Positions 610-28,057 of a stretch of 41,320 bases of DNA are shown here, piece by piece. The position numbers were made by a program, and so were the translations under genes. Source of the DNA: an uncultured Methylomarinum sp. (GTDB lineage Bacteria; Pseudomonadota; Gammaproteobacteria; Methylococcales; Methylomonadaceae); NCBI GenBank assembly GCA_964568245.1, contig CAZMQH010000001.1, positions 1 through 41,320 on the forward strand, in the 5' to 3' direction. Under the pieces are notes generated by a model. The model did not search any database and was not told where the DNA came from. It was given only the letters and a program-made list of their open reading frames with translations. Numbering within the stretch: position 1 is the stretch's first letter; each line of letters begins with the position of its first letter.

Positions 610-1020
610 ATGATAAATGAGCTATATATGAATATTTTATTTAAAAATATCCCTATAGGAACTACAGGGTATGCGTTAGCTGATTTCGTTGAGTCAGAAT
701 TTAATTTACATTCAACGGAGGAAAAGGAACTTTCGGTGGCTGTCTGCTGTATTGAGATGCTAGAAAAACAAGATCATTTCTGTCATCCGATTGAACAGTA
801 TGGCATTGTAAGAATTTCCCCTCCTAGTCTTGCTAGAAAAGTAATGAGACAGTTAGATGGTTGTTTGTTTAAGAAGCTTAATTTAACCGTTAGGGAGTAT
901 TGTACTCGCTCGACCATTAATGATCCAAGGTTAAACCATATTGATACACATGAAGTGATTTTAGAAAAAAGAGTTAAGGATAGAAGAGAGCATTCTTTGA
1001 TTTATTCTAGACAAATTTAG
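610..1020 (+). CDS. hypothetical protein, possibly a degenerate RRM-like fold with a basic tail
   Basis: 136-codon ORF. From the internal Met at 628 (MNILFKNIP...) it reads like a ferredoxin-like/RRM fold (ILFKNI ... YGIVRI ... LNLTVREY), followed by a basic tail (EKRVKDRRE). A candidate promoter lies upstream: TTGATT (571-576), 16 bp, TATACT (593-598). The start codon (610 or 628) is uncertain. Confidence 0.5.
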   Translation: MINELYMNILFKNIPIGTTGYALADFVESEFNLHSTEEKELSVAVCCIEMLEKQDHFCHPIEQYGIVRISPPSLARKVMRQLDGCLFKKLNLTVREYCTRSTINDPRLNHIDTHEVILEKRVKDRREHSLIYSRQI

Positions 1021-1206: not shown

Positions 1207-3195
1207 ATGACACAGCAAGCAAAAATTGAGTATATATCTACTCCAGACGTCTCGTACACGTTTCAACCACCCTCTTCTAATGGTAAAGAAAACTTAAGAG
1301 TCAAAATTTTTGTTTTAACTTTTGTAGTTTCTTTAATTATCGGAATAAGTATTAATTATTCCAGACCTGCTGTTTATTTAAGTCGTGCAACTTTATTAAC
1401 CTCTGCTGCTACCGCAGTCGATAAAAGCAGTCAAGATGTTGATTTTCAGCATGTGACTATCCAAAAACAAAAACTTTTAGGGCTGGAGTTATTAACAGAA
1501 ACTATTACTAGAGTTAAGGCACTAGATAATGAATTGGAATTGTCGGGGATTACATTGTCAGATGTCCGGCAGATGTTAATCGTTGAGCCGATTGAAGATA
1601 CTAATCTTCTTACTATGTCTGCTCAAGGTTCATCACCTGAGATGTTGCCTGTTGTTATTAATACCTGGATTGATGTTTATCTTGAGGCTAGAGCAGAGAG
1701 TGTTAAAAATGCAGCTGATAATACAGTGGAGCGTATTGATAATGAATTAACTGAACTTGGCATAAGGATTAACCAAACCCGAACTGAAATAGATTTGTTC
1801 AGGAAAAAACATGATATTAGTTCTATTGCTAGAGAAGAAAATGAGCTACCAGCAACACTTATAGGCTTAACAAAAGTTTTGAATGATGCAAATGAAAATT
1901 TGTTAAAAAGCAAAGCAAAATTTGATGCTGTTAATCGGGCTATCGCAAATGGCCGAGCTGTTGTTCCGCAATACGAGCAAACTGGATTAACTGAGCTTGA
2001 AAAAGAATATCGTGAGTTAGTTGCACAAATGGCTGAGTTTGATAAACATTTTACTCGTGATTATTTGCAGTATCAAGGGACAATGAAATATATACCTGAG
2101 CAAATAAAGTTATTGGAACAGAAAATAAAGCTTAAACGTAAACGCGGTAAAAGTATTGTTAGAACGGAAGCGAGTCAAGAGTATTATGCTGCTAAACAGG
2201 TGGTAGAGAAAGTTAGGTTGCAACTTGATCAGCATAAAATAAAAGCTGCAAATTTCACTACTTTATTCTCTAAGCACCAGAAATTATTGGATGATATGGA
2301 GTCACTGGAAGCTATGACCCGAGAAACTCAGGATCGCTTGATTAAAATACAAAGTACACAATTTGAAAAATATCCACAAGTTGATGTGGTAGAACGGGCC
2401 AGTGTTAATCTGCAAGCGATTAGCCCAGATTATAAAATGGGACTGTATATTGTTTTGATAACATCACTCTGTCTAGCTTTTTTTGCAGTATGGCTTAGAC
2501 AATTTTTGATGCCAGCCCCTATATCTAAAGGGGAAAATATCCCTGAAGTTCCTATGGCAACGTGGTTTGGTACTGGGGCTATACAGAAAAATAAAGAAAT
2601 TGAGCAACAGCATGAGTCCTCTTTTATTGAGCAAAAAAAGTCTAATGGTTTGCCGAATTTACCTGTTTATAAGAAAATTTCTGAAGCGGATATACAATTA
2701 ATATTAAAGCATGGCGATGATAATACTCAGCAATTAATTTTATTGTTATTGTCAGGCATGGACCTAGAGGAAATATCTAAACTGACTTTAGAACAAATAA
2801 ATAGTGAGCTTTCAACGATCCATTTTTTTGAATCGTCTTCTCGTGTTATTCCTATTGGCCGTGTGTTACTGGAAAAATTAAATAAATCTCTCCAAAGTGA
2901 CCGCTTATGGCAAGCAAAAGATAATTTATCGATAGACGATATGAATGCGATGCTTTATTGCTCGGCTATTGATATTGGGTTTGATAACTTAGGCGAGCCA
3001 TTGTCAGAAATTTTGCGAAAAAGTTATATTATTTATTTAGTGGAGCAAGGCGTTCGGTTGACAGAGTTGGCTAAAATTATTGGTGAGCGATCTCCTGTTG
3101 AGTTAGCTGGCTATGCTGATTTTTCACCCATTGGCGGAGGCTGCGATATGGATCAAATTCAAGTTGTATATCCTTTATGCCAAAAAAATGATTAA
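1207..3195 (+). CDS. Wzz/GumC-type polysaccharide co-polymerase (PCP) N-terminal module fused to a C-terminal tyrosine-recombinase-like domain lacking key catalytic residues
   Basis: 662-codon ORF with GAGGA 4 nt upstream of the ATG. TM1 is VKIFVLTFVVSLIIGISINY, followed by a Wzz-like RPAVYLSRATLL segment and a long coiled-coil region. A GNVR-like segment (YPQVDVVERASVNLQAISPDYKMG) precedes TM2 (LYIVLITSLCLAFFAVWL). The ~225-aa cytoplasmic tail has no Walker motifs. It resembles integrase box I (LLLLLSGMDLEEISKLTLEQIN) and box II (EILRKSYIIYLVEQGVRLTELAKIIGERSPVELAGYADF). Confidence 0.6.
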   Translation: MTQQAKIEYISTPDVSYTFQPPSSNGKENLRVKIFVLTFVVSLIIGISINYSRPAVYLSRATLLTSAATAVDKSSQDVDFQHVTIQKQKLLGLELLTETITRVKALDNELELSGITLSDVRQMLIVEPIEDTNLLTMSAQGSSPEMLPVVINTWIDVYLEARAESVKNAADNTVERIDNELTELGIRINQTRTEIDLFRKKHDISSIAREENELPATLIGLTKVLNDANENLLKSKAKFDAVNRAIANGRAVVPQYEQTGLTELEKEYRELVAQMAEFDKHFTRDYLQYQGTMKYIPEQIKLLEQKIKLKRKRGKSIVRTEASQEYYAAKQVVEKVRLQLDQHKIKAANFTTLFSKHQKLLDDMESLEAMTRETQDRLIKIQSTQFEKYPQVDVVERASVNLQAISPDYKMGLYIVLITSLCLAFFAVWLRQFLMPAPISKGENIPEVPMATWFGTGAIQKNKEIEQQHESSFIEQKKSNGLPNLPVYKKISEADIQLILKHGDDNTQQLILLLLSGMDLEEISKLTLEQINSELSTIHFFESSSRVIPIGRVLLEKLNKSLQSDRLWQAKDNLSIDDMNAMLYCSAIDIGFDNLGEPLSEILRKSYIIYLVEQGVRLTELAKIIGERSPVELAGYADFSPIGGGCDMDQIQVVYPLCQKND

Positions 3196-3213
3196 TCTAA
3201 AGTGAGGAATGTG

Positions 3214-3597
3214 ATGAGTTGGAGAAAAGTGGGTCATGATGATACCTATAGTGATGAACAAGTTGAGTTGCGCTTGAAAGAACAATTACCGCATTGGTAT
3301 TTAGAAAAAGGCTGGATACGTCGAAAATATAAAACCAGTGGGTGGAAATCAACATTAATGGTAGTTAATACGGTAGGTCATCTTGCTGAATCAGCTTTTC
3401 ACCATCCAGACTTAAGCGTATCTTATGCCTTTGTGATTGTTAAATTAATGAATCATGCGGCAAAAGGTATTACCAATAAGGATTTTGAGCTAGCATCTAA
3501 AATTGAAGAGGTAGTTATGTGGCAACCTGGTTTAGACCAAGGGGCTTTGGAAGGAACACCATCTGATCCTAGGTTTAAGTATATAAAATATGATTAG
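3214..3597 (+). CDS. phhB: pterin-4-alpha-carbinolamine dehydratase (PCD/DCoH family)
   Basis: The full PCD signature [DE]-x3-H-H-P-x5-[YW]-x9-H-x8-D is present in AESAFHHPDLSVSYAFVIVKLMNHAAKGITNKD. GAGGA lies 5 nt upstream of the ATG at 3214. The ORF track's GTG at 3202 is a less likely start. Confidence 0.85.
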   Translation: MSWRKVGHDDTYSDEQVELRLKEQLPHWYLEKGWIRRKYKTSGWKSTLMVVNTVGHLAESAFHHPDLSVSYAFVIVKLMNHAAKGITNKDFELASKIEEVVMWQPGLDQGALEGTPSDPRFKYIKYD

Positions 3598-11158: not shown

Positions 11159-11623
11159 TTAGTGGTTCATTACAAATATTAAGGTCATAAAAAATAGAAT
11201 TTCAAAGGAGAGGATGCGGCCTTGAATTTCAAGAATAGCTTGTTTGGCTGATGTTTGGGAATTGCTGGCTTTATGTTCACAATAAATGATTCCAATCAAT
11301 CCACTTGTTATCAAAAAAAACAAGAAATGATAGAGGTCTTCTCTATGGTGAAAAAGTAGGTCGGAAATTAAATGTGAAAGGATAAAGCCAAAAAAACTGG
11401 TGCTTACAAGCCACATACTGAATTCCATCGGGTAATACTTTATATGGAATGCCTCTTTGTTTTTTAAGTGATGCAGAATGTTAATTCTTGATGTTGCATA
11501 AAGAATAGGAAGATAGTAATAAAAAATAACGGCACTTAATGGATACATAGCAAAAGAAATATGCTTCATAAAAGATAATCCAAAGGCAATAATAATAGCT
11601 ATAAATAATGGAATAGAATGCAT
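11159..11623 (-). CDS. hypothetical small integral membrane protein (154 aa)
   Basis: ORF with 4-5 hydrophobic helices and several His residues (HHLKNKEAFH, LFHHRED). It converges on waaA. No family was recognised. Confidence 0.5.
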   Translation of the reverse strand: MHSIPLFIAIIIAFGLSFMKHISFAMYPLSAVIFYYYLPILYATSRINILHHLKNKEAFHIKYYPMEFSMWLVSTSFFGFILSHLISDLLFHHREDLYHFLFFLITSGLIGIIYCEHKASNSQTSAKQAILEIQGRILSFEILFFMTLIFVMNH

Positions 11624-12003: not shown

Positions 12004-13290
12004 ATGAAACAAATTATATTGATAGTATTAGGGCTATTTCAAATTAACATGGTCTGTGCCAAATCTATTCAGACTATTAAAATTAGTTACATTACTCAGG
12101 AGCAAGAAATTCCATCAGCTTTATCAAATCTAGATGTTTTTATTCAAAATAAAGGCCTGATGGGTGCTAATATTGGCGTTGATGATAATAATACAACTGG
12201 ACAGTTTACCGGACAGAAATTTGAATTAAATAGAATTATTGTTCCTGTTGGGGCTGATGTTGTTCAGCTATTTGAGCAGCAGGTAGCTGATGATATACCT
12301 TTTATCATTACCAATTTACCTAAGCAGCAATTAAAGCAGCTGGCAGATCTATATTCGGCACAAGATAAGCTTTTTTTTGATGCCAGCACTACAGATGATG
12401 AATTAAGAAATAAACAGTGCAGGGATAATGTACTGCATATGCTGCCGAGTCGTGCGATGAGGGCAGATGCTCTTGCTCAGTATATGATGAAGAAAAAATG
12501 GACTCAGTGGTTTTTAGTCACCGGCATGACTGAAGAAGACCGGCTTTATGCAGAATCTTTAAAGCGAGCGGCCAAACGGTTTGGTATGAATATTGTTGCT
12601 GAAAAACAATGGACTCATACTTATGATGCACGTAGAACGGCTCAATCAGATGTGCCTGTTTTTACGCAAGGTGTAGATTATGATGTGCTGGTCGTTGCTG
12701 ATGAACAGGGCTTATTTGGTGAATACTTTGAGTACCGTAGTTGGAAACCTCGGCCCATTGTGGGTACTCAAGGTTTAGTGGCTACTGCATGGCATAAAAC
12801 GCATGAGCAATGGGGTGCGGTACAAATACAAAACCGTTTCAAGGTGTTGGCGGGACGCAGAATGCAAGAACAAGATTACGCGGCTTATTTAGCGGCTCGA
12901 TCAATAGGTGAGGCGGCGGTTAGAACTAAATCTAATAAAATGCAGGTGGTAAAAGATTATTTACTGGGTGATGAATTTGCATTGCAAGGGTATAAAGGAA
13001 AACCTTTATCTTTTAGGTCTTGGAATGGGCAGTTAAGACAGCCAGTATTATTGGCAGCAGCGAGATCCTTAGTGGCTGTTGCTCCTATTGATGGTTTTTT
13101 ACACCCTAAGACCGCATTAGATACCTTAGGTTTTGATCAGCCCGAATCAAGTTGTAATCGTGAACTATCAGCTGACAATGATACCTTATCAACAACACAA
13201 AATAATACCACGGCTGAAACTGAACTCACAATGGATAAACTTATTCAGCAGCTTAAAAATTACTATAATCGTTTAAATGGAAATAAATAA
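12004..13290 (+). CDS. periplasmic substrate-binding protein (LivK-like fold), PQQ-dehydrogenase-system associated type (PedA1-like)
   Basis: 428 aa with a signal peptide (MKQIILIVLGLFQINMVCA). It is the first gene of the binding protein / YVTN propeller / ABC ATPase / ABC-2 permease order that defines the PQQ-alcohol-dehydrogenase-associated transporter set. Confidence 0.7.
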   Translation: MKQIILIVLGLFQINMVCAKSIQTIKISYITQEQEIPSALSNLDVFIQNKGLMGANIGVDDNNTTGQFTGQKFELNRIIVPVGADVVQLFEQQVADDIPFIITNLPKQQLKQLADLYSAQDKLFFDASTTDDELRNKQCRDNVLHMLPSRAMRADALAQYMMKKKWTQWFLVTGMTEEDRLYAESLKRAAKRFGMNIVAEKQWTHTYDARRTAQSDVPVFTQGVDYDVLVVADEQGLFGEYFEYRSWKPRPIVGTQGLVATAWHKTHEQWGAVQIQNRFKVLAGRRMQEQDYAAYLAARSIGEAAVRTKSNKMQVVKDYLLGDEFALQGYKGKPLSFRSWNGQLRQPVLLAAARSLVAVAPIDGFLHPKTALDTLGFDQPESSCNRELSADNDTLSTTQNNTTAETELTMDKLIQQLKNYYNRLNGNK

Positions 13291-13291
13291 A

Positions 13292-14260
13292 ATGAAGCGA
13301 AGTCTATTAGGTGTTGTATTGGTACTGTCTACTTGTTTGAGTTTGGCGGTTCAAGCTGAACGCGTGATTGTGACTTTGGAAAAGGATAATGCATTGGCAA
13401 TCATTGACCCGATTGCAGGCAAGCTTATTAAAACGGTAGCTATAGGGCAGCGGCCAAGAGGTATCGCTTTGAGTCCTGATAATAAATATTTGTATGTTGC
13501 TACCAGTGATGATAATACGGTTAAGATTATTGATGCAGAGACTTATGAAGTTATAGGTCAATTACCATCAGGTGAAGATCCCGAAACCTTTGCATTAAGT
13601 CCAGCAGGTGACAGGTTATATGTTTCCAATGAAGATGATCATTTGGTTACGGTTATTGATATTGTTAACAAAAAGAAAATTGCTCAAATTAAAGTAGGAA
13701 TAGAGCCGGAAGGGATTGCAGTCAGTTCTGATAATCAATGGGTTGTTAGTGCATCTGAAACAACCAATATGATTCATTGGATTGATGTAAAAACAAATCA
13801 GATTGTTGAAAATACATTGGTTGATGCGCGGCCTCGGGCGGCTCAGTTTACCGCTGATAATACTCAGTTATGGGTCACTTCAGAAATGGCAGGTACCTTG
13901 ATGATATTAGATGTTGCTAGCAAGAAAATTATCAAAAAAATAAAGCTAGATATTCAAGGCTTAAGCACAGACAAAATTCAACCTGTGGGTGTAGTGATTG
14001 ATAAAGATAGGCGGTGGGGGTATGTGGCGATAGGTCCTGCTAATCGAGTTGCAGTAATTGATGCTCAAACATTAGAGGTTGAAAAGTTTTTATTGGTTGG
14101 GCAGCGTGTTTGGAATCTGGCTTTTTCACCTGATCAGAAAAGATTGTATACCACTAATGGACGAAGTAATGATATTTCAATCATTGATCTGGAAAATCAT
14201 AAAGTAATGAAATCGGTTGCTGTCGGGCGATTTCCTTGGGGAGTAGTTTCAAAGCCATGA
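13292..14260 (+). CDS. YVTN-family beta-propeller repeat protein (PedA2-like)
   Basis: Signal peptide MKRSLLGVVLVLSTCLSLAVQA. At least five repeats follow the pattern P.GIA.SPD...LYV.....N.V.VID, for example RPRGIALSPDNKYLYVATSDDNTVKIID and DPETFALSPAGDRLYVSNEDDHLVTVID. An alternative ATG at 13277 overlaps the preceding gene. Confidence 0.8.
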   Translation: MKRSLLGVVLVLSTCLSLAVQAERVIVTLEKDNALAIIDPIAGKLIKTVAIGQRPRGIALSPDNKYLYVATSDDNTVKIIDAETYEVIGQLPSGEDPETFALSPAGDRLYVSNEDDHLVTVIDIVNKKKIAQIKVGIEPEGIAVSSDNQWVVSASETTNMIHWIDVKTNQIVENTLVDARPRAAQFTADNTQLWVTSEMAGTLMILDVASKKIIKKIKLDIQGLSTDKIQPVGVVIDKDRRWGYVAIGPANRVAVIDAQTLEVEKFLLVGQRVWNLAFSPDQKRLYTTNGRSNDISIIDLENHKVMKSVAVGRFPWGVVSKP

Positions 14261-15006
14261 GTGATAAACAAAAGCCAGCATCACTTGAAGTTACAGATTT
14301 AAGTTTTTCCTACAGTGGAAAAAAAGCACTGGATAACGTGAGTTTTGTGGTAAATTCGGCGGAATGTACTATTTTATTAGGTCCTAATGGGGCGGGTAAG
14401 AGTACCTTGTTTTCTCTTATTACCCGTTTATATGACTCACGAATAGGTAAAATAAATCTTTGTGGCTTTGATATAAAGCAGCAAACACGAGAGGCATTGT
14501 CTAGCTTAGGTGTTGTGTTTCAGCAGACTACATTAGATTTGGATTTAACGGTTATGCAAAACCTGCGTTATCACACCGCACTTCATGGAATGAGTAGGAA
14601 ACAAGCTGATTTGAGAATTCAACAAGAGTTAGAAAGGTTGTCAATGTATGATCGGCGGTCGGAGAAAGTACGCCAATTGAATGGTGGGCATAAACGACGT
14701 GTTGAAATTGCTAGAGCATTATTGCATAAGCCTGCTCTATTGTTATTAGATGAACCTACGATAGGGCTTGATGTCCCAAGTAGGCAGTCTATTGTTGAAC
14801 ATCTACATAACTTAGTGAATGATCATGGTTTGTCTGTGCTTTGGGCAACCCATTTGATTGATGAAATTTATCCAAATGATAAGTTGATTGTGTTAGATAA
14901 AGGTCAAATAAAGTTTAATGGAGCCGTAGAGGGTGTATTAAAAGCTACAGAAACAAGCTCAATCAATGATGCTTTTAAGGTATTAACTCAAGGAGTGAGA
15001 GGATGA
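14257..15006 (+). CDS. ABC transporter ATP-binding protein (PedB-like)
   Basis: Walker A GPNGAGKST, signature LNGGHKRRVEIA and Walker B LLLLDEPT. The ATG at 14257 overlaps the upstream stop codon (ATGA). The ORF-track TTG at 14236 is less likely. Confidence 0.88.
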   Translation: MSDKQKPASLEVTDLSFSYSGKKALDNVSFVVNSAECTILLGPNGAGKSTLFSLITRLYDSRIGKINLCGFDIKQQTREALSSLGVVFQQTTLDLDLTVMQNLRYHTALHGMSRKQADLRIQQELERLSMYDRRSEKVRQLNGGHKRRVEIARALLHKPALLLLDEPTIGLDVPSRQSIVEHLHNLVNDHGLSVLWATHLIDEIYPNDKLIVLDKGQIKFNGAVEGVLKATETSSINDAFKVLTQGVRG

Positions 15007-15806
15007 ATATTGTTCATTATTGGCGGGCAATGTGGGGCATTATTGGGCGAGAGCTTTGGCGTTTCGTTAAGCAGCGAGAGCGGTTTGTTTCAGCTTTAGT
15101 GCGACCTTTAGTTTGGCTGTTTATTTTTGCAGCTGGTTTTAGAGCGGCGTTAGGGCTAGCAATTACACCACCTTATGAAACCTATATTTTATACGAAGTA
15201 TATATTACTCCAGGTTTGATGGGGATGATTCAGCTTTTTAATGGTATGCAAAGTTCTTTATCAATGGTTTATGACAGAGAGATGGGGAGTATGCGAATTT
15301 TAATGGTTTGCCCGTTACCTCGTTGGTTTTTATTAATGAGTAAGTTAATAGCAGGAGTCGCTGTTTCAATTTTACAAGTTTATGTGTTTTTGTTAGTAGC
15401 CTGGTTTTATGATATTGAGGCACCTTTAGAGGGTTATTTTTATGTGCTTCCTGCCTTAATGCTTGCTGGAGCCATGCTGGGAGCTTTAGGGTTATTGCTG
15501 TCATCTTTTATTAAGCAATTAGAGAATTTTTCTGGTGTGATGAATTTTGTGATTTTTCCTATGTTTTTTATGTCTACTGCCTTATATCCCTTATGGAAAA
15601 TGAAAGAATCAAGTGAATGGTTGCATCACCTTGCTTTTTTTAATCCTTTTTCTCAGGCCGTTGAATTAATAAGGTTTGCTTTCTATGGACAATTTAATAG
15701 CTTTGCTTTTACTTACACTTTAGTTGCTTTTTTGGTTTTTATGACGATTGCTGTTGTGGGGTACAATCCATCAAAAGGTATGATGATGAAAAAAGGAGGA
15801 AGGTAG
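15003..15806 (+). CDS. ABC-2 type transporter permease (PedC-like)
   Basis: 267 aa with six hydrophobic helices. An ATGA overlap links it to the ATPase gene. Confidence 0.85.
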   Translation: MNIVHYWRAMWGIIGRELWRFVKQRERFVSALVRPLVWLFIFAAGFRAALGLAITPPYETYILYEVYITPGLMGMIQLFNGMQSSLSMVYDREMGSMRILMVCPLPRWFLLMSKLIAGVAVSILQVYVFLLVAWFYDIEAPLEGYFYVLPALMLAGAMLGALGLLLSSFIKQLENFSGVMNFVIFPMFFMSTALYPLWKMKESSEWLHHLAFFNPFSQAVELIRFAFYGQFNSFAFTYTLVAFLVFMTIAVVGYNPSKGMMMKKGGR

Positions 15807-15890: not shown

Positions 15891-17480
15891 GTGAAAAACT
15901 CTTTTTTTCTAATCATTCCTGCGCAGCAAGATAGTCCAGACTTGCTGTTGCCTTATGAAAAAGAAAGAGTTAATCAATGGCTTCAAGAATTGCCAACGGC
16001 AAACCCTAGTTTATCAACGCGATTGTTTTTTGATTTTCTTGAGGGTTTTAACAAAGTTACTATGCCTGCTCAACAAAGGCTTGATATTTTGGAGTTATTA
16101 AGGCCTTCTTTTTTACTTATTGAGGATTTTTTGCGTTCACGATTATTAGTTGCGGGATTCCCCAAGGGTAGTAATGAGCAGAAAGTTTTTAATGTACTTG
16201 TGTTAATAGAAAAAAATATGACGATAGGCTATTGGATGGTTATTCGTGAGTTAACACATCGTGATGCTGGGTGGTTTCAAGGTAAGAATATTGCTTTAGC
16301 GCTTCAGCGAACTATTAAAGGCCTAAGTGAAATTGTCGTGACTCATTATATGATGTTCCGAATTGTGCCAGACTGGGTTTGGATAGATTTACATTCGCTC
16401 TATAGATTAAGTGTAAAAGCAAAAAAAGAAGCAACAAAAGTCGCTGATAGTACACGATTACCCTCTAAAGTAAGCTCAGCTGAAGAATGTTACAAGCAAG
16501 TCTTACTTTTAAGTTTGGCAGATCCTTCAGGTTTAATGCAAAAAGAAATTACCCAAGTTTATAGTTTTATTGCGAACCTTTGCCAATTTGTAAAGATAGA
16601 AATGCAGGAAATTGAATCTCAAAAACAGCAGTGTATTATTTTAATGGATGAAGATACGGCGCCATTTTGGAGGCGGCGGGATGATCAGACTGATTCGTCA
16701 ATGATGTACTTTGATTTGTTGAAGTTATATAAAATCTTACAATCACCTGATAAGTTTATTGATAGTCAAGAGGCTAGGTTTAGTTCTTTGCATAAAAGAA
16801 ATAATGCTTCTGAGGAAATGTCCGTTAGTTTGTTTTTATACCTACAACAAAGTTGGGCGGGGGAGGTCTGTGCGGGAGGAGATTTCTTTACGGATAGATT
16901 GGATCGGTGTATTGCAATAGGATTAGATGCTACGCATTCATTACAAAGTAACAAAAAAAATAAAGATGTGGCATCGTTAGAGTTTTTGGCTGAATCTTTT
17001 TCTGATAGAGAGTTGGCCTGTACTTTTGAGCATGAAGGTGTTTTATCCATTGGAAGTCTTGTTAGTTTTAGAAAAACCAATGAGTCCGAAACAAAACGTA
17101 TATTGAGTATTGTAAAAAAAATAACGATCCTTAAGCAGAGTGAGAAAATAATTTTTGAGTTATCTGCGATTACTCCTGTATCTTATGCTGTGAGTTATAC
17201 CAACCTTGATACAGGTACTAATGAGGTGGGTAATGAACAACATAAAGCATTACTCTACGGTGTAAAAGACAAGAAGGCAGAAAGAAGTTTTATTATTATG
17301 GAGTCTTTTATGCATAAAAATGAGGATGGGTTAAGGCTTTTTATGGGGAAAGATATTTTTCCAATTGTTTTGGGGAATAGGAAAAATATAGGGTTAGGTT
17401 ATTGGCAATTTGAATGTAGAAAAATCGAAGAGCAGCAAGTAGAACAAATAATAAAGAAAAAAGGATATGATTTTATTTAG
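15891..17480 (+). CDS. large conserved hypothetical protein, possibly with a PilZ-like C-terminal beta-barrel (weak)
   Basis: 529-codon ORF with a GTG start and no strong RBS. The N-terminal half is helical (QWLQELPTANPSLSTRLFFDFLEGFNKV...RLDILELLRPSFLLIEDFL). The C-terminal ~150 aa look beta-rich (GSLVSFRK...RILSIVKKI...HKALLYGV...SFIIMESF). No canonical RxxxR / DxSxxG pair was found. Confidence 0.55.
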   Translation: MKNSFFLIIPAQQDSPDLLLPYEKERVNQWLQELPTANPSLSTRLFFDFLEGFNKVTMPAQQRLDILELLRPSFLLIEDFLRSRLLVAGFPKGSNEQKVFNVLVLIEKNMTIGYWMVIRELTHRDAGWFQGKNIALALQRTIKGLSEIVVTHYMMFRIVPDWVWIDLHSLYRLSVKAKKEATKVADSTRLPSKVSSAEECYKQVLLLSLADPSGLMQKEITQVYSFIANLCQFVKIEMQEIESQKQQCIILMDEDTAPFWRRRDDQTDSSMMYFDLLKLYKILQSPDKFIDSQEARFSSLHKRNNASEEMSVSLFLYLQQSWAGEVCAGGDFFTDRLDRCIAIGLDATHSLQSNKKNKDVASLEFLAESFSDRELACTFEHEGVLSIGSLVSFRKTNESETKRILSIVKKITILKQSEKIIFELSAITPVSYAVSYTNLDTGTNEVGNEQHKALLYGVKDKKAERSFIIMESFMHKNEDGLRLFMGKDIFPIVLGNRKNIGLGYWQFECRKIEEQQVEQIIKKKGYDFI

Positions 17481-17952
17481 GAGTGTGTAGGGAATAACTT
17501 GAACAGCTATCTCTTTTTACCTCTGTTTTATCGTCAATTGTATGCTCTAATGCATTGTAGGTTTACTGCGAGCCTAATGAAATTATCTTATTTATAGTAA
17601 ATTTTGAGTTATAATTTTGGGCAGTTATTCTGGGCGGGCGTGCGGCCTTAAGTGCTTGAGCATATTAATCTAACATTTTACTGGTCTTTTTTCCATATTC
17701 TGTGTTGTATAAACAATTATGTAACTGGCTATGCGCCTTGAATATAAAAAACAATTCTGCGTAAAATTAATTAAATTAATTATGCACAGCTACTTAGCAA
17801 GCTATTGTTTTTTATTTAGATAATAATGACTTGAAAAGATTTGTTATCATGGTACATTTAACGGTCAAATTATAATAATAAAGAAACGTATATAGAAAAT
17901 GTGTAAAGATTCTTTGCGTTTTGTAAGTTTTTAATTGAAGAGGAGAGTTAGT

Positions 17953-18531
17953 GTGAGTAATGACGAAAATTCTAATGATATAAAAGAAACAGTAGAAGCA
18001 GTGAAAGAGGCTGTAGAGGAAGCTGTGGATACAGTTAAAGATACTGTGGAAGATGCTGTTGATGCTGCGAAAGAGACTGTAGATAATATTGTTGAAGATA
18101 ATGGAAATGCTGTTTCAAAAATAATGGATCTTAAAGAATCAAACCCTAAAGCATTTTTTGGTGCTATTGCTGGTTTGGTTGTTGTTATTCTTTACATGTT
18201 TATGGGAGGTGGTAGTAATGCTCCTATTCAGCAATATAAACAAGTTAATCTTTCAATCGGAAATACTTATACCTTAAAAGGTGTGAATTCTTATAGTGAC
18301 GAGGTTAAGGTTAGATTGGTTTCAGTGCCTGGATCAATGGCTGCTTATGATGAAAGTAAAGAGGGCGGTGCTACTGTTGATAAATGTAAGCGTATGGATC
18401 AAGGTACAAAAGTTAAATTACTTCAAATTCAAGAAGCTTTTGGTGGCACAGTATTTGCCCAAGTTGAAATCCTTGGTTCAAGTGGCTGTGCAGGTAGAAC
18501 TGCTTGGGCGACAGCAAGTAATTTAAACTAG
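17953..18531 (+). CDS. single-pass membrane protein with an acidic repeat N-terminus and an SH3-like C-terminal domain
   Basis: GAGGAGAG lies 5-6 nt upstream of the GTG at 17953 (the ORF track starts at TTG 17935). The N-terminus is a quasi-repeat, ETVEAVKEAVEEAVDTVKDTVEDAVDAAKETVDNIVED. The TM helix is AFFGAIAGLVVVILYMFMGG. The C-terminus has an SH3b-like pattern (QGTKVKLLQIQEAFGGTVFAQVEILGSSGCAGRTAWATASNL). Confidence 0.6.
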   Translation: MSNDENSNDIKETVEAVKEAVEEAVDTVKDTVEDAVDAAKETVDNIVEDNGNAVSKIMDLKESNPKAFFGAIAGLVVVILYMFMGGGSNAPIQQYKQVNLSIGNTYTLKGVNSYSDEVKVRLVSVPGSMAAYDESKEGGATVDKCKRMDQGTKVKLLQIQEAFGGTVFAQVEILGSSGCAGRTAWATASNLN

Positions 18532-27247: not shown

Positions 27248-28057
27248 TCATTGAGCTTTATCAACTTTAATTAATATTTTCATACTTTTATCTGTTGTTG
27301 AATATCGATGAGATAAAGTGCCGTATCTAGTATGCTGGCTCTGTTGATCAGTTCCACCAATTTCCACCCATTGTCCAAGCCTAACCCTGATTGTAGTATG
27401 TCCACTTTGGGTGCTGAATTCACCAGAATTATTGATTTTATCAGACCAAGGACTAACTTCTAGGGTCACTTGTTTTCCAGATAAACGAGGCGTCACCATA
27501 AAACCTGTACTCGCTTCAATAAGTTGTGTGTTGGTGGAAATAACAGGGTAGCCGTAGCCAGATGGGTAGATATTAATATTTTGTACGGGGTGTATTTGTC
27601 CTATTTTTATATAAGCAGGTTTCCCATCAAGTGTCTGAATTTGTTGCTGGCTGTTTGAGTGGTTTAAGCTTTCTGTATTGGCAAAGCGACCTCTGAATCT
27701 ATAGGGAAGGCTAGATGGTCTACTTGTACGAATATTAACTCTATTATTGGCAGAGGCATTAAGTGATTCTGCTGACTCAGTGTTACTTTGTATTACCGTT
27801 ATAGTTAAATTGTTTAAACGTGAATCAAGCTGGTCAATTAACTTTTTGATCTCTTTTTGTCTTGCAGGCGTAGCTTTAACGATAAGGCTGGAGCGGTTAG
27901 CAACAATGCGTTCTGAATTTTCAAGAAATGGACTAATTAAAGGCTGAAGCTCTGAAGCAAAGCGATTATTAAGAGGCACTACTTTCATGACTAGATCATC
28001 AGCAGTGCTGTCAGTAGTAAAAAAAACACTAAGGAATAAAAATAATATTTTAAGCAT
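27248..28057 (-). CDS. short secretin-like protein (secretin N-domain plus truncated secretin core), orphan
   Basis: Signal peptide MLKILFLFLSVFFTTDSTA. MKVVPLNNRFASELQPLISPFL...NRSSLIVKATPARQKEIKKLIDQLD fits the Secretin_N/NolW pattern. LDGKPAYIKIGQ...STGFMVTPRLSGKQVTLEVSPWSD...TTIRVRLGQWVEIGGT...MKILIKV fits the secretin core pattern. The protein is only 269 aa. Confidence 0.6.
   Translation of the reverse strand: MLKILFLFLSVFFTTDSTADDLVMKVVPLNNRFASELQPLISPFLENSERIVANRSSLIVKATPARQKEIKKLIDQLDSRLNNLTITVIQSNTESAESLNASANNRVNIRTSRPSSLPYRFRGRFANTESLNHSNSQQQIQTLDGKPAYIKIGQIHPVQNINIYPSGYGYPVISTNTQLIEASTGFMVTPRLSGKQVTLEVSPWSDKINNSGEFSTQSGHTTIRVRLGQWVEIGGTDQQSQHTRYGTLSHRYSTTDKSMKILIKVDKAQ

Follow-up and report, generated by a model that had tools for sequence, protein, structure and literature searches.

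The gene described here lies near the start of contig CAZMQH010000001.1 (assembly GCA_964568245.1) of an uncultured Methylomarinum sp.; the whole stretch of 41,320 nt that was analysed is referred to below as the window. The open reading frame (ORF) at 1207-3195 (+) starts with ATG and encodes a 662-aa protein in which a polysaccharide co-polymerase (PCP) part of the PCP-2 superfamily is joined to a C-terminal domain with the catalytic fold of tyrosine recombinases. Exactly this ORF, with two transmembrane (TM) segments and no Walker A motif, had been reported in a first-pass annotation made from the sequence alone, and both features were found again by hydropathy and sequence analysis. The gene recurs as full-length homologues with which its N-terminus is collinear in alignment, and a purine-rich, Shine-Dalgarno-like stretch (GAGGAAGGG, 1198-1206, +) can be read immediately 5′ of the ATG. 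The closest relatives, from metagenome-assembled genomes (MAGs) of Methylomonas and Methylomarinum, have at most 75% identity to the 662-aa protein.

The polysaccharide co-polymerase part

Hydropathy (Kyte-Doolittle) places the two TM segments at residues ∼31-51 and ∼411-432, with peaks over ∼29-52 and ∼409-434, and the full-length AlphaFold2 (AF2) model has helices at 27-52 and 409-434. The protein was divided accordingly, all segments being on the + strand: a disordered N-terminal segment of residues 1-26 (1207-1284; predicted local distance difference test, pLDDT, <50), which by homology with PCPs such as Wzc would be cytoplasmic; TM1, residues 27-52 (1285-1362); the periplasmic PCP domain, residues 53-408 (1363-2430); and TM2, residues 409-434 (2431-2508). 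Within the PCP domain the model shows an alpha/beta base (56-141), a helical hairpin (146-383) and short strands (392-406). The coiled coil of ∼330 aa in the first-pass annotation is thus too long, the hairpin having ∼240 aa.

The 662-aa protein matches the NCBIfam model TIGR03007 (chain length determinant of the XrtA system) with E 6e-10 over residues 34-372. When 27 diverse family members were scanned against the NCBIfam and Pfam PCP models, TIGR03007 was matched by all 27 (best E 3e-22), EpsF by 22 and eps_transp_fam by 18. These scores are far under the curated equivalog cutoffs (38 vs 279 bits for the window protein and TIGR03007) and therefore establish membership at the superfamily level only; at that level, the N-terminal part belongs to the PCP-2 superfamily (Wzc/GumC/EpsF-like). 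The family profile matches E. coli Wzc structures (7nhr) with E 4e-9. A Foldseek search with the full-length model (pLDDT 77, predicted TM-score, pTM, 0.36) returned Wzc (9r68, 5.5e-9), Wzz (6rbg), KpsE (8tsh) and WzzE (8p3p), which span PCP classes 1, 2 and 3, followed by recombinases, which match the tail. Flexibility of the long helices in the monomer model keeps the Foldseek TM-scores of the PCP part low (0.2-0.3). Conservation is highest in the stretches beside TM1 and ahead of TM2, which are typical of PCPs. The PCP architecture read from the letters was therefore borne out by the TIGR03007 matches, the Wzc profile and the structural search. In the Pfam scan the window protein alone matches none of the models that the first-pass annotation had named as a check, PF02706 and PF13807 for this part and PF00589 for the tail; PF02706 and PF13807 have weak matches in a few family members, and what supports the assignments is the family profiles together with the structural models.

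Among curated PCP models, TIGR03007 (XrtA/PEP-CTERM) and EpsF (TIGR03017) score highest for all or most members. Proteins of these two families have ∼500 aa, are not known to carry a folded C-terminal domain and are encoded in exopolysaccharide loci with a separate kinase. With Wzc of E. coli K30 and other PCP-2a proteins (7nhr, 9r62) the fusion protein shares the two TM helices, the alpha/beta base with a long hairpin and a folded domain after TM2. The difference is in that last domain, which in Wzc is a P-loop bacterial tyrosine kinase (BY-kinase) with a C-terminal Tyr cluster and here has a recombinase fold; the 662-aa protein has no Walker A motif, no C-terminal Tyr cluster and no BY-kinase domain. 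Also unlike the gene for Wzc, the fusion gene does not sit together with genes for Wza, Wzb, Wzx or Wzy.

Fold, catalytic positions and charge of the tail

The tail of 228 aa consists of a variable cytoplasmic linker, residues 435-492 (2509-2682, +), in which residues 438-483 are disordered (pLDDT <50), and a compact pseudo-tyrosine-recombinase catalytic domain, residues 493-660 (2683-3186, +). The first-pass annotation had considered a tail of ∼225 aa integrase-like as a whole; fold and profiles support the likeness, but ∼50 aa of the tail are disordered linker and the folded part has ∼170 aa. For the tail, AF2 gave a high-confidence model (pLDDT 91.8, pTM 0.90). In a Foldseek search of the PDB with this model the top 47 matches were all tyrosine recombinases or YopR/MrpR (probability 1.00), the best being XerA (5hxy, E 4e-7, TMq 0.69); YopR (8bj6) and MrpR (8a0a) were among the matches.

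The tail of the window protein alone matches XerA (4a8e) with E 1e-3 and NCBIfam NF002685 with E 1e-7, while a profile of 27 tail sequences matches XerA with E 8.5e-12, covers the entire catalytic domain and, after XerA, matches P2 Int, IntI4, HP1 Int, XerD and Tn1549 Int. PF00589 was matched by 23 of the 27 tails, the window's own tail not being among them. Structure and profiles thus return tyrosine-recombinase folds only, at scores well above chance expectation, as the first-pass annotation had expected of the tail, which is a domesticated tyrosine-recombinase catalytic fold in the position of the BY-kinase. In the AF2 model only TM2 and the disordered linker precede this domain, and no core-binding domain is present.

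The pairing of the tail with recombinase boxes I and II, which had been made by eye, was reproduced by HMMER and hhalign, with D519, E522, E601, R604, E627 and Y636 at the positions given below, and an hhalign comparison with a bona fide integrase of M. alcaliphilum gave the same register as the XerA alignments. Residue counts in this register were taken over 223 full-length members; all positions below are on the + strand. The Arg-I position is lost (D519, 2761-2763; T in 92, S in 71, A in 15, N in 14, D in 12 and R in 6 members), as is His-II (E601, 3007-3009; E in 116, D in 53, A in 19, H in 4). The His/Trp-III position is variable (E627, 3085-3087; Y in 94, P in 29, T in 19, H in 16, and others). 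The catalytic hairpin Lys before R546 is missing, and the hairpin window has no Lys in 179 of the 223 members. Kept are Arg-II (R604, 3016-3018; R in 207), the nucleophile Tyr position (Y636, 3112-3114; Y in 200) and the equivalent of Cre Glu176 (E522, 2770-2772; E in 215), a residue whose role in Cre is described in PMC2943603. The Arg of the ‘PRxIPI’ strand, R546 (2842-2844), is R in 220 of the 223.

Not one of the 223 members has the complete catalytic set, and the substitutions that had suggested a pseudo-enzyme hold throughout the family. With Arg-I, the hairpin Lys, His-II and His/Trp-III lost family-wide, the alignments indicate that the tail is not a recombinase. Arg-I and Lys are among the Cre residues that tolerate substitution least. 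Gibb et al. found that ∼9% of tyrosine-recombinase sequences have no Arg-I, and suggested that such sequences may be inactive yet retain Arg-II and Tyr (PMC2943603), a description that the present family fits. With XerA, XerD and the P2 and HP1 integrases (PF00589) the tail shares the catalytic-domain fold and the Glu, Arg-II and Tyr residues; it differs from them in lacking Arg-I, Lys, His-II, His/Trp-III and the core-binding domain, and in being acidic and membrane-anchored. Second in rank among the NCBIfam matches of the window protein is NF002685, a streptococcal ‘XerD-like’ model whose proteins, which we take to be catalytically degenerate as well, are soluble and have no membrane protein as fusion partner.

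Mean identity across the 223 members is 17% in the linker, 35% in the tail and 44% in the N-terminal part, and G517, R546, D589, Y607, Q614, G626 and P656 are essentially invariant in the tail; a C-terminal segment with the pattern ‘I..I..(Y/H)P’ is conserved too. Such invariant residues, beside a freely drifting linker, show that the tail is under purifying selection.

The tails are also uniformly acidic: all 221 that were scored have an isoelectric point (pI) of 4.2-6.4, with a median net charge of −8, and no basic surface was found, as judged by bulk charge alone. The catalytic domains of XerA and P2 Int have a pI of 9.9 each, and that of a methanotroph integrase 8.7. The basic stretch of XerA before box II (KRKRKDK...KKYGRKAG) is aligned to acidic residues in the family consensus. 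As a positive control for both charge and alignment we used the intact integrase, with all motifs, that M. alcaliphilum 20Z (L001) carries 6 kb from its fusion gene. Since uniformly acidic tails are combined with the lack of a core-binding domain, canonical binding or clamping of DNA by the tail appears unlikely from the sequences.

These data bear on the proposal that the protein is a membrane-tethered DNA binder similar to MrpR/YopR, which would tether a chromosomal site to the envelope machinery or act as a ToxR-like regulator. MrpR/YopR is the SPbeta master repressor, which has a recombinase fold and does not recombine (PMC10516654); both YopR and MrpR appear among the structural matches of the tail, Arg-II and Tyr are retained, the long flexible linker could reach the nucleoid, and in two Alteromonadales-type loci the next gene encodes an MGMT-like DNA-binding protein (see below). 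MrpR/YopR has the fold and the catalytic loss in common with the tail but is soluble and has no membrane fusion, and MrpR binds DNA. Against such a role stand the acidity of every tail scored, the absence of a core-binding domain, the loss of the hairpin Lys and Arg-I, the replacement of the DNA-facing basic segment of XerA by acidic residues, and the confinement of the MGMT-like neighbour to one clade. We consider a DNA-binding role quite unlikely; of the two functions named in the first-pass annotation, a partner-binding module agrees better with acidic tails that have no core-binding domain than does membrane-tethered binding of DNA.

Distribution, genome context and proposed role

A first homology search gave 214 matches, the best 120 of which were nearly full-length (603-687 aa) and came from Methylococcales and Nitrosomonadaceae. 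Scanning 185,579 species genomes brought up 152 relatives, of which the best 80 were from Methylococcales, Nitrosomonadaceae or MAGs labelled at a higher rank only (Gammaproteobacteria, beta proteobacterium, Burkholderiales, Pseudomonadota). The top 80 genomes had suggested a family restricted to methane and ammonia oxidisers with intracytoplasmic membranes, an idea ruled out by divergent members in Pseudomaricurvus (Cellvibrionales), Paraglaciecola (Alteromonadales) and MAGs of Chromatiales and Pseudomonadales. An exhaustive search with the tail profile gave 428 cluster representatives at E ≤1e-10. The best 150 either had the full-length fusion architecture (625-703 aa) or were fragments collinear with it that lack N-terminal sequence, with no stand-alone or otherwise fused tail among them; all 66 short tail matches were collinear N-truncated fragments of the same architecture. 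As far as sequences can tell, the fusion is conserved across several hundred proteobacterial lineages.

Database names of these proteins include ‘GumC family protein’, ‘integrase’, ‘phage integrase’, ‘tyrosine-type recombinase/integrase’, ‘ExoP’ and ‘hypothetical protein’; each half has already been noticed by automatic annotation pipelines. Names such as ‘integrase’ and ‘phage integrase’ in several records might suggest an active mobile-element integrase, or a frameshift or assembly artefact that fuses a PCP gene to an integrase gene. Such an origin is hardly conceivable, given an architecture of 640-700 aa in >200 independent sequences from isolates and MAGs, a complete catalytic set in none of them, no core-binding domain and no att-like or mobile context seen; the conservation data effectively exclude it. 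Plasmid and phage collections contained no match to the family, and a mobile-element origin was rejected on that ground. A role in anti-phage defence was considered and set aside, PADLOC models giving no match at E ≤0.01. Literature searched by concept and by accession contained no paper on the fusion; the first-pass annotation likewise knew of none, and since coverage was incomplete the absence is not proof.

Genome context was sampled in 84 related loci and nine long contexts, with all-vs-all clustering of 1663 flanking ORFs. No conserved neighbour emerged: no flanking ORF cluster was present in more than 22 of the 84 loci, and those seen reflect synteny within a genus. The orphan status noted from the window therefore extends to the family. 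Neighbours are varied and include an SNF2 helicase with GT2, an FGE-sulfatase, sdhCD with thiS, an SSF transporter with DUF6851/VCPO_2nd, URO-D with a PEP-utilising enzyme, an MGMT-like gene with HD-GYP, and a ParA-like gene with TIM. In M. alcaliphilum 20Z the fusion gene is just downstream of a SWIM/SNF2 helicase (this helicase and the intact integrase together: L001 3067-4068, 6331-9648). In the Paraglaciecola-type loci (L087 11994-13612, L089 12007-13632) the MGMT-like gene starts 9-17 bp after the fusion gene and encodes 112-114 aa matching PF01035 and passing the TIGR00589 ogt cutoff (47.5 vs 46.4 bits); a DUF3391/HD-GYP gene comes next, and a 7TMR-DISM hybrid histidine kinase is encoded upstream of the fusion. 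This arrangement may point to a regulatory link confined to that clade. The fusion gene of a Chromatiales MAG has, 196 bp upstream and in divergent orientation, a gene for a ParA/MinD-type P-loop ATPase (L088 9026-9805, −); it was considered as an adjacent BY-kinase and rejected, as it scores best as ParA and BY-kinase models match weakly.

Across the ∼90 contexts no gene for Wza, Wzx, Wzy, a glycosyltransferase or a kinase is linked to the fusion gene, and in the window the 38 kb downstream contain no Wza/OPX, Wzx or Wzy and no polysaccharide locus. A polysaccharide role is therefore argued from homology of the N-terminal part only. One may then regard the protein as an envelope-spanning coiled-coil scaffold with a function unrelated to polysaccharide assembly, as its orphan position throughout Methylococcales, Nitrosomonadaceae, Cellvibrionales, Alteromonadales, Chromatiales and Pseudomonadales, and PCP scores all under family cutoffs, would allow. 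All structural neighbours of the N-terminal part are polysaccharide co-polymerases, however, and the segments conserved best are those typical of PCPs, by TM1 and before TM2; we judge an unrelated function quite unlikely.

Precedents for a non-catalytic cytoplasmic module in a PCP-2 system exist. PCP-2 function is tied to oligomeric states set by the cytoplasmic BY-kinase, and pseudokinase scaffolds can substitute for it, as with EcpK and EpsV and arguably GumC; GumC, and EpsV with the BY-pseudokinase EcpK, are phosphorylation-independent PCP-2 systems for which a cytoplasmic scaffold has been proposed (PMC12004946, PMC9800525). They give a precedent for a pseudo-enzyme scaffold as the module on which PCP-2 function relies (PMC12004946, PMC9800525), and they are the nearest functional analogy to the present family, with the difference that their pseudo-enzyme derives from the BY-kinase P-loop fold and here it derives from a recombinase fold and is covalently fused.

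The reading that we prefer, and to which we would give about an even chance, is that of a chromosomal stand-alone PCP-2 protein whose dead recombinase domain replaces the BY-kinase as a scaffold or regulatory module. It is the most economical because the dead domain sits in the BY-kinase position on a flexible tether. Under it, the PCP-2 part would assemble as a ring, like other PCP-2 proteins, and the ring would serve a polysaccharide pathway, Wzx/Wzy-type or related, whose genes lie elsewhere in the genome. As a non-catalytic cytoplasmic scaffold or regulator, the tail would recruit a partner or set the oligomeric state, which in other PCP-2 systems is the task of BY-kinases or of the BY-pseudokinases EcpK and GumC. 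A phosphate-bearing ligand or a partner residue may be bound in a pocket made up of the retained Arg-II, Tyr and Glu. Several observations weigh against this interpretation, namely the low pTM of the full-length model, the PCP-model scores far below the equivalog cutoffs, the lack of linked polysaccharide genes, and the retention of Arg-II and Tyr in ∼90% of members, for which a pure scaffold does not account.

Alternatively, the tail would be a docking or substrate platform for a separately encoded BY-kinase or phosphatase, in a PCP-2b-like split arrangement, or a sensor of a small phosphate-containing ligand, with the conserved Tyr/Arg pocket as phospho-acceptor or ligand site. The TIGR03007 and EpsF models, which match the family best, belong to systems with the kinase as a separate protein. 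Y607, Y610, Y636, R604 and R546 show little or no variation, the second gene downstream encodes an HD-GYP protein in two loci, and BY-kinases have been reported to phosphorylate the tyrosine recombinase HK022 Int (reference 10 in PMC9800525). Yet no context has a linked kinase or phosphatase gene, and the sole ParA-like neighbour is ParA rather than BY-kinase by score. Known PCP-2b activators, moreover, are short C-terminal peptides and not folded domains. We regard a docking platform or sensor as unlikely.

The scaffold reading can be carried further, to a third solution for cytoplasmic control of PCP-2 proteins: a recombinase domain would have been domesticated once, stripped of its DNA-binding charge and most of its catalytic residues and fixed as a ring or regulatory module, possibly binding a phospho-ligand or partner via the Arg-II/Tyr/Glu pocket. 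This extension is possible, on the doubtful side; if it is true, no earlier recombinase-fold pseudo-enzyme would have had a part in envelope polysaccharide assembly, and none would have been membrane-anchored.

Cycling of PCP-2 proteins between oligomeric states is believed to require a BY-kinase or BY-pseudokinase in the cytoplasm. An unrelated, inactivated DNA-recombinase fold in its place, conserved through a family, would show that the need is for a regulated scaffold and not for the kinase fold. The few domesticated tyrosine recombinases that are known would thereby gain a use unconnected with DNA. Methane and ammonia oxidisers of environmental importance carry the family, among them genetically tractable Methylotuvimicrobium strains such as M. 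buryatense 5GB1C (WP_017841747.1) and M. alcaliphilum 20Z (CCE25437.1), which makes it directly testable. Several hundred ‘integrase’-type database entries are misleading and could inflate the counts of mobile elements in these genomes. The three outcomes that would have refuted the first-pass annotation, on the fold of the tail and on the PCP match of the N-terminal part, were each checked for, and none of them occurred.

Immediate setting and other genes of the window

The contig provides 1.2 kb upstream of the fusion gene and no more, and the G+C content of the window is 31-42%. Promoter and terminator sites predicted near the gene were no more numerous than in shuffled sequence. The gene for pterin-4a-carbinolamine dehydratase (PCD; 3202-3597, +; PF01329, E 2e-24) starts 7 nt past the stop of the fusion gene, and the two may be co-transcribed in the window. 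Upstream, at 610-1020 (+), is an ORF of 136 aa. Of the neighbours named earlier the PCD was thus confirmed, but the ‘RRM-like’ label (for RNA recognition motif) of the 136-aa ORF was not, as it has no Pfam, NCBIfam or PADLOC match. By tblastn over the 84 loci, the pairing with PCD recurs solely in L006, a relative with 65% identity; the 136-aa ORF has a counterpart (79.5% identity) in L005 alone, likewise upstream of the fusion gene, and neither gene is kept beyond the closest relatives. The 136-aa ORF is probably a real gene, with no function assigned by family matches.

An antisense ORF, 1677-1913 (−), is located inside the coiled-coil-coding part of the fusion gene, as is one in M. alcaliphilum 20Z (L001 10213-10725, −), and one cluster of antisense ORFs in this part recurs in 39 of the 84 loci. 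They are probably a by-product of repetitive Glu/Lys/Leu-rich codon usage and not a gene.

The other 38 kb of the window are of a housekeeping character (recN, nadK, rpsF/rpsR/rplI, waaA, mfd, miaB, phoH, ybeY, glgABC, malQ, nqrABC). ORFs without a Pfam match are those at 15891-17480 (+; 529 aa) and 11159-11623 (−; 154 aa), at a threshold of E ≤1e-3, and at 17935-18531 (+; 198 aa), at E ≤1e-6. Beside glgA and glgB, a 269-aa ORF at 27248-28057 (−), much shorter than usual secretins, has weak Secretin_N/Secretin matches (∼5e-8). Four genes in a row at 12004-15806 (+) encode a periplasmic binding protein, a YNCE-type beta-propeller, an ATP-binding cassette (ABC) ATPase and an ABC-2 permease, and presumably resemble the ABC system associated with pyrroloquinoline quinone (PQQ)-dependent alcohol dehydrogenases in methylotrophs.

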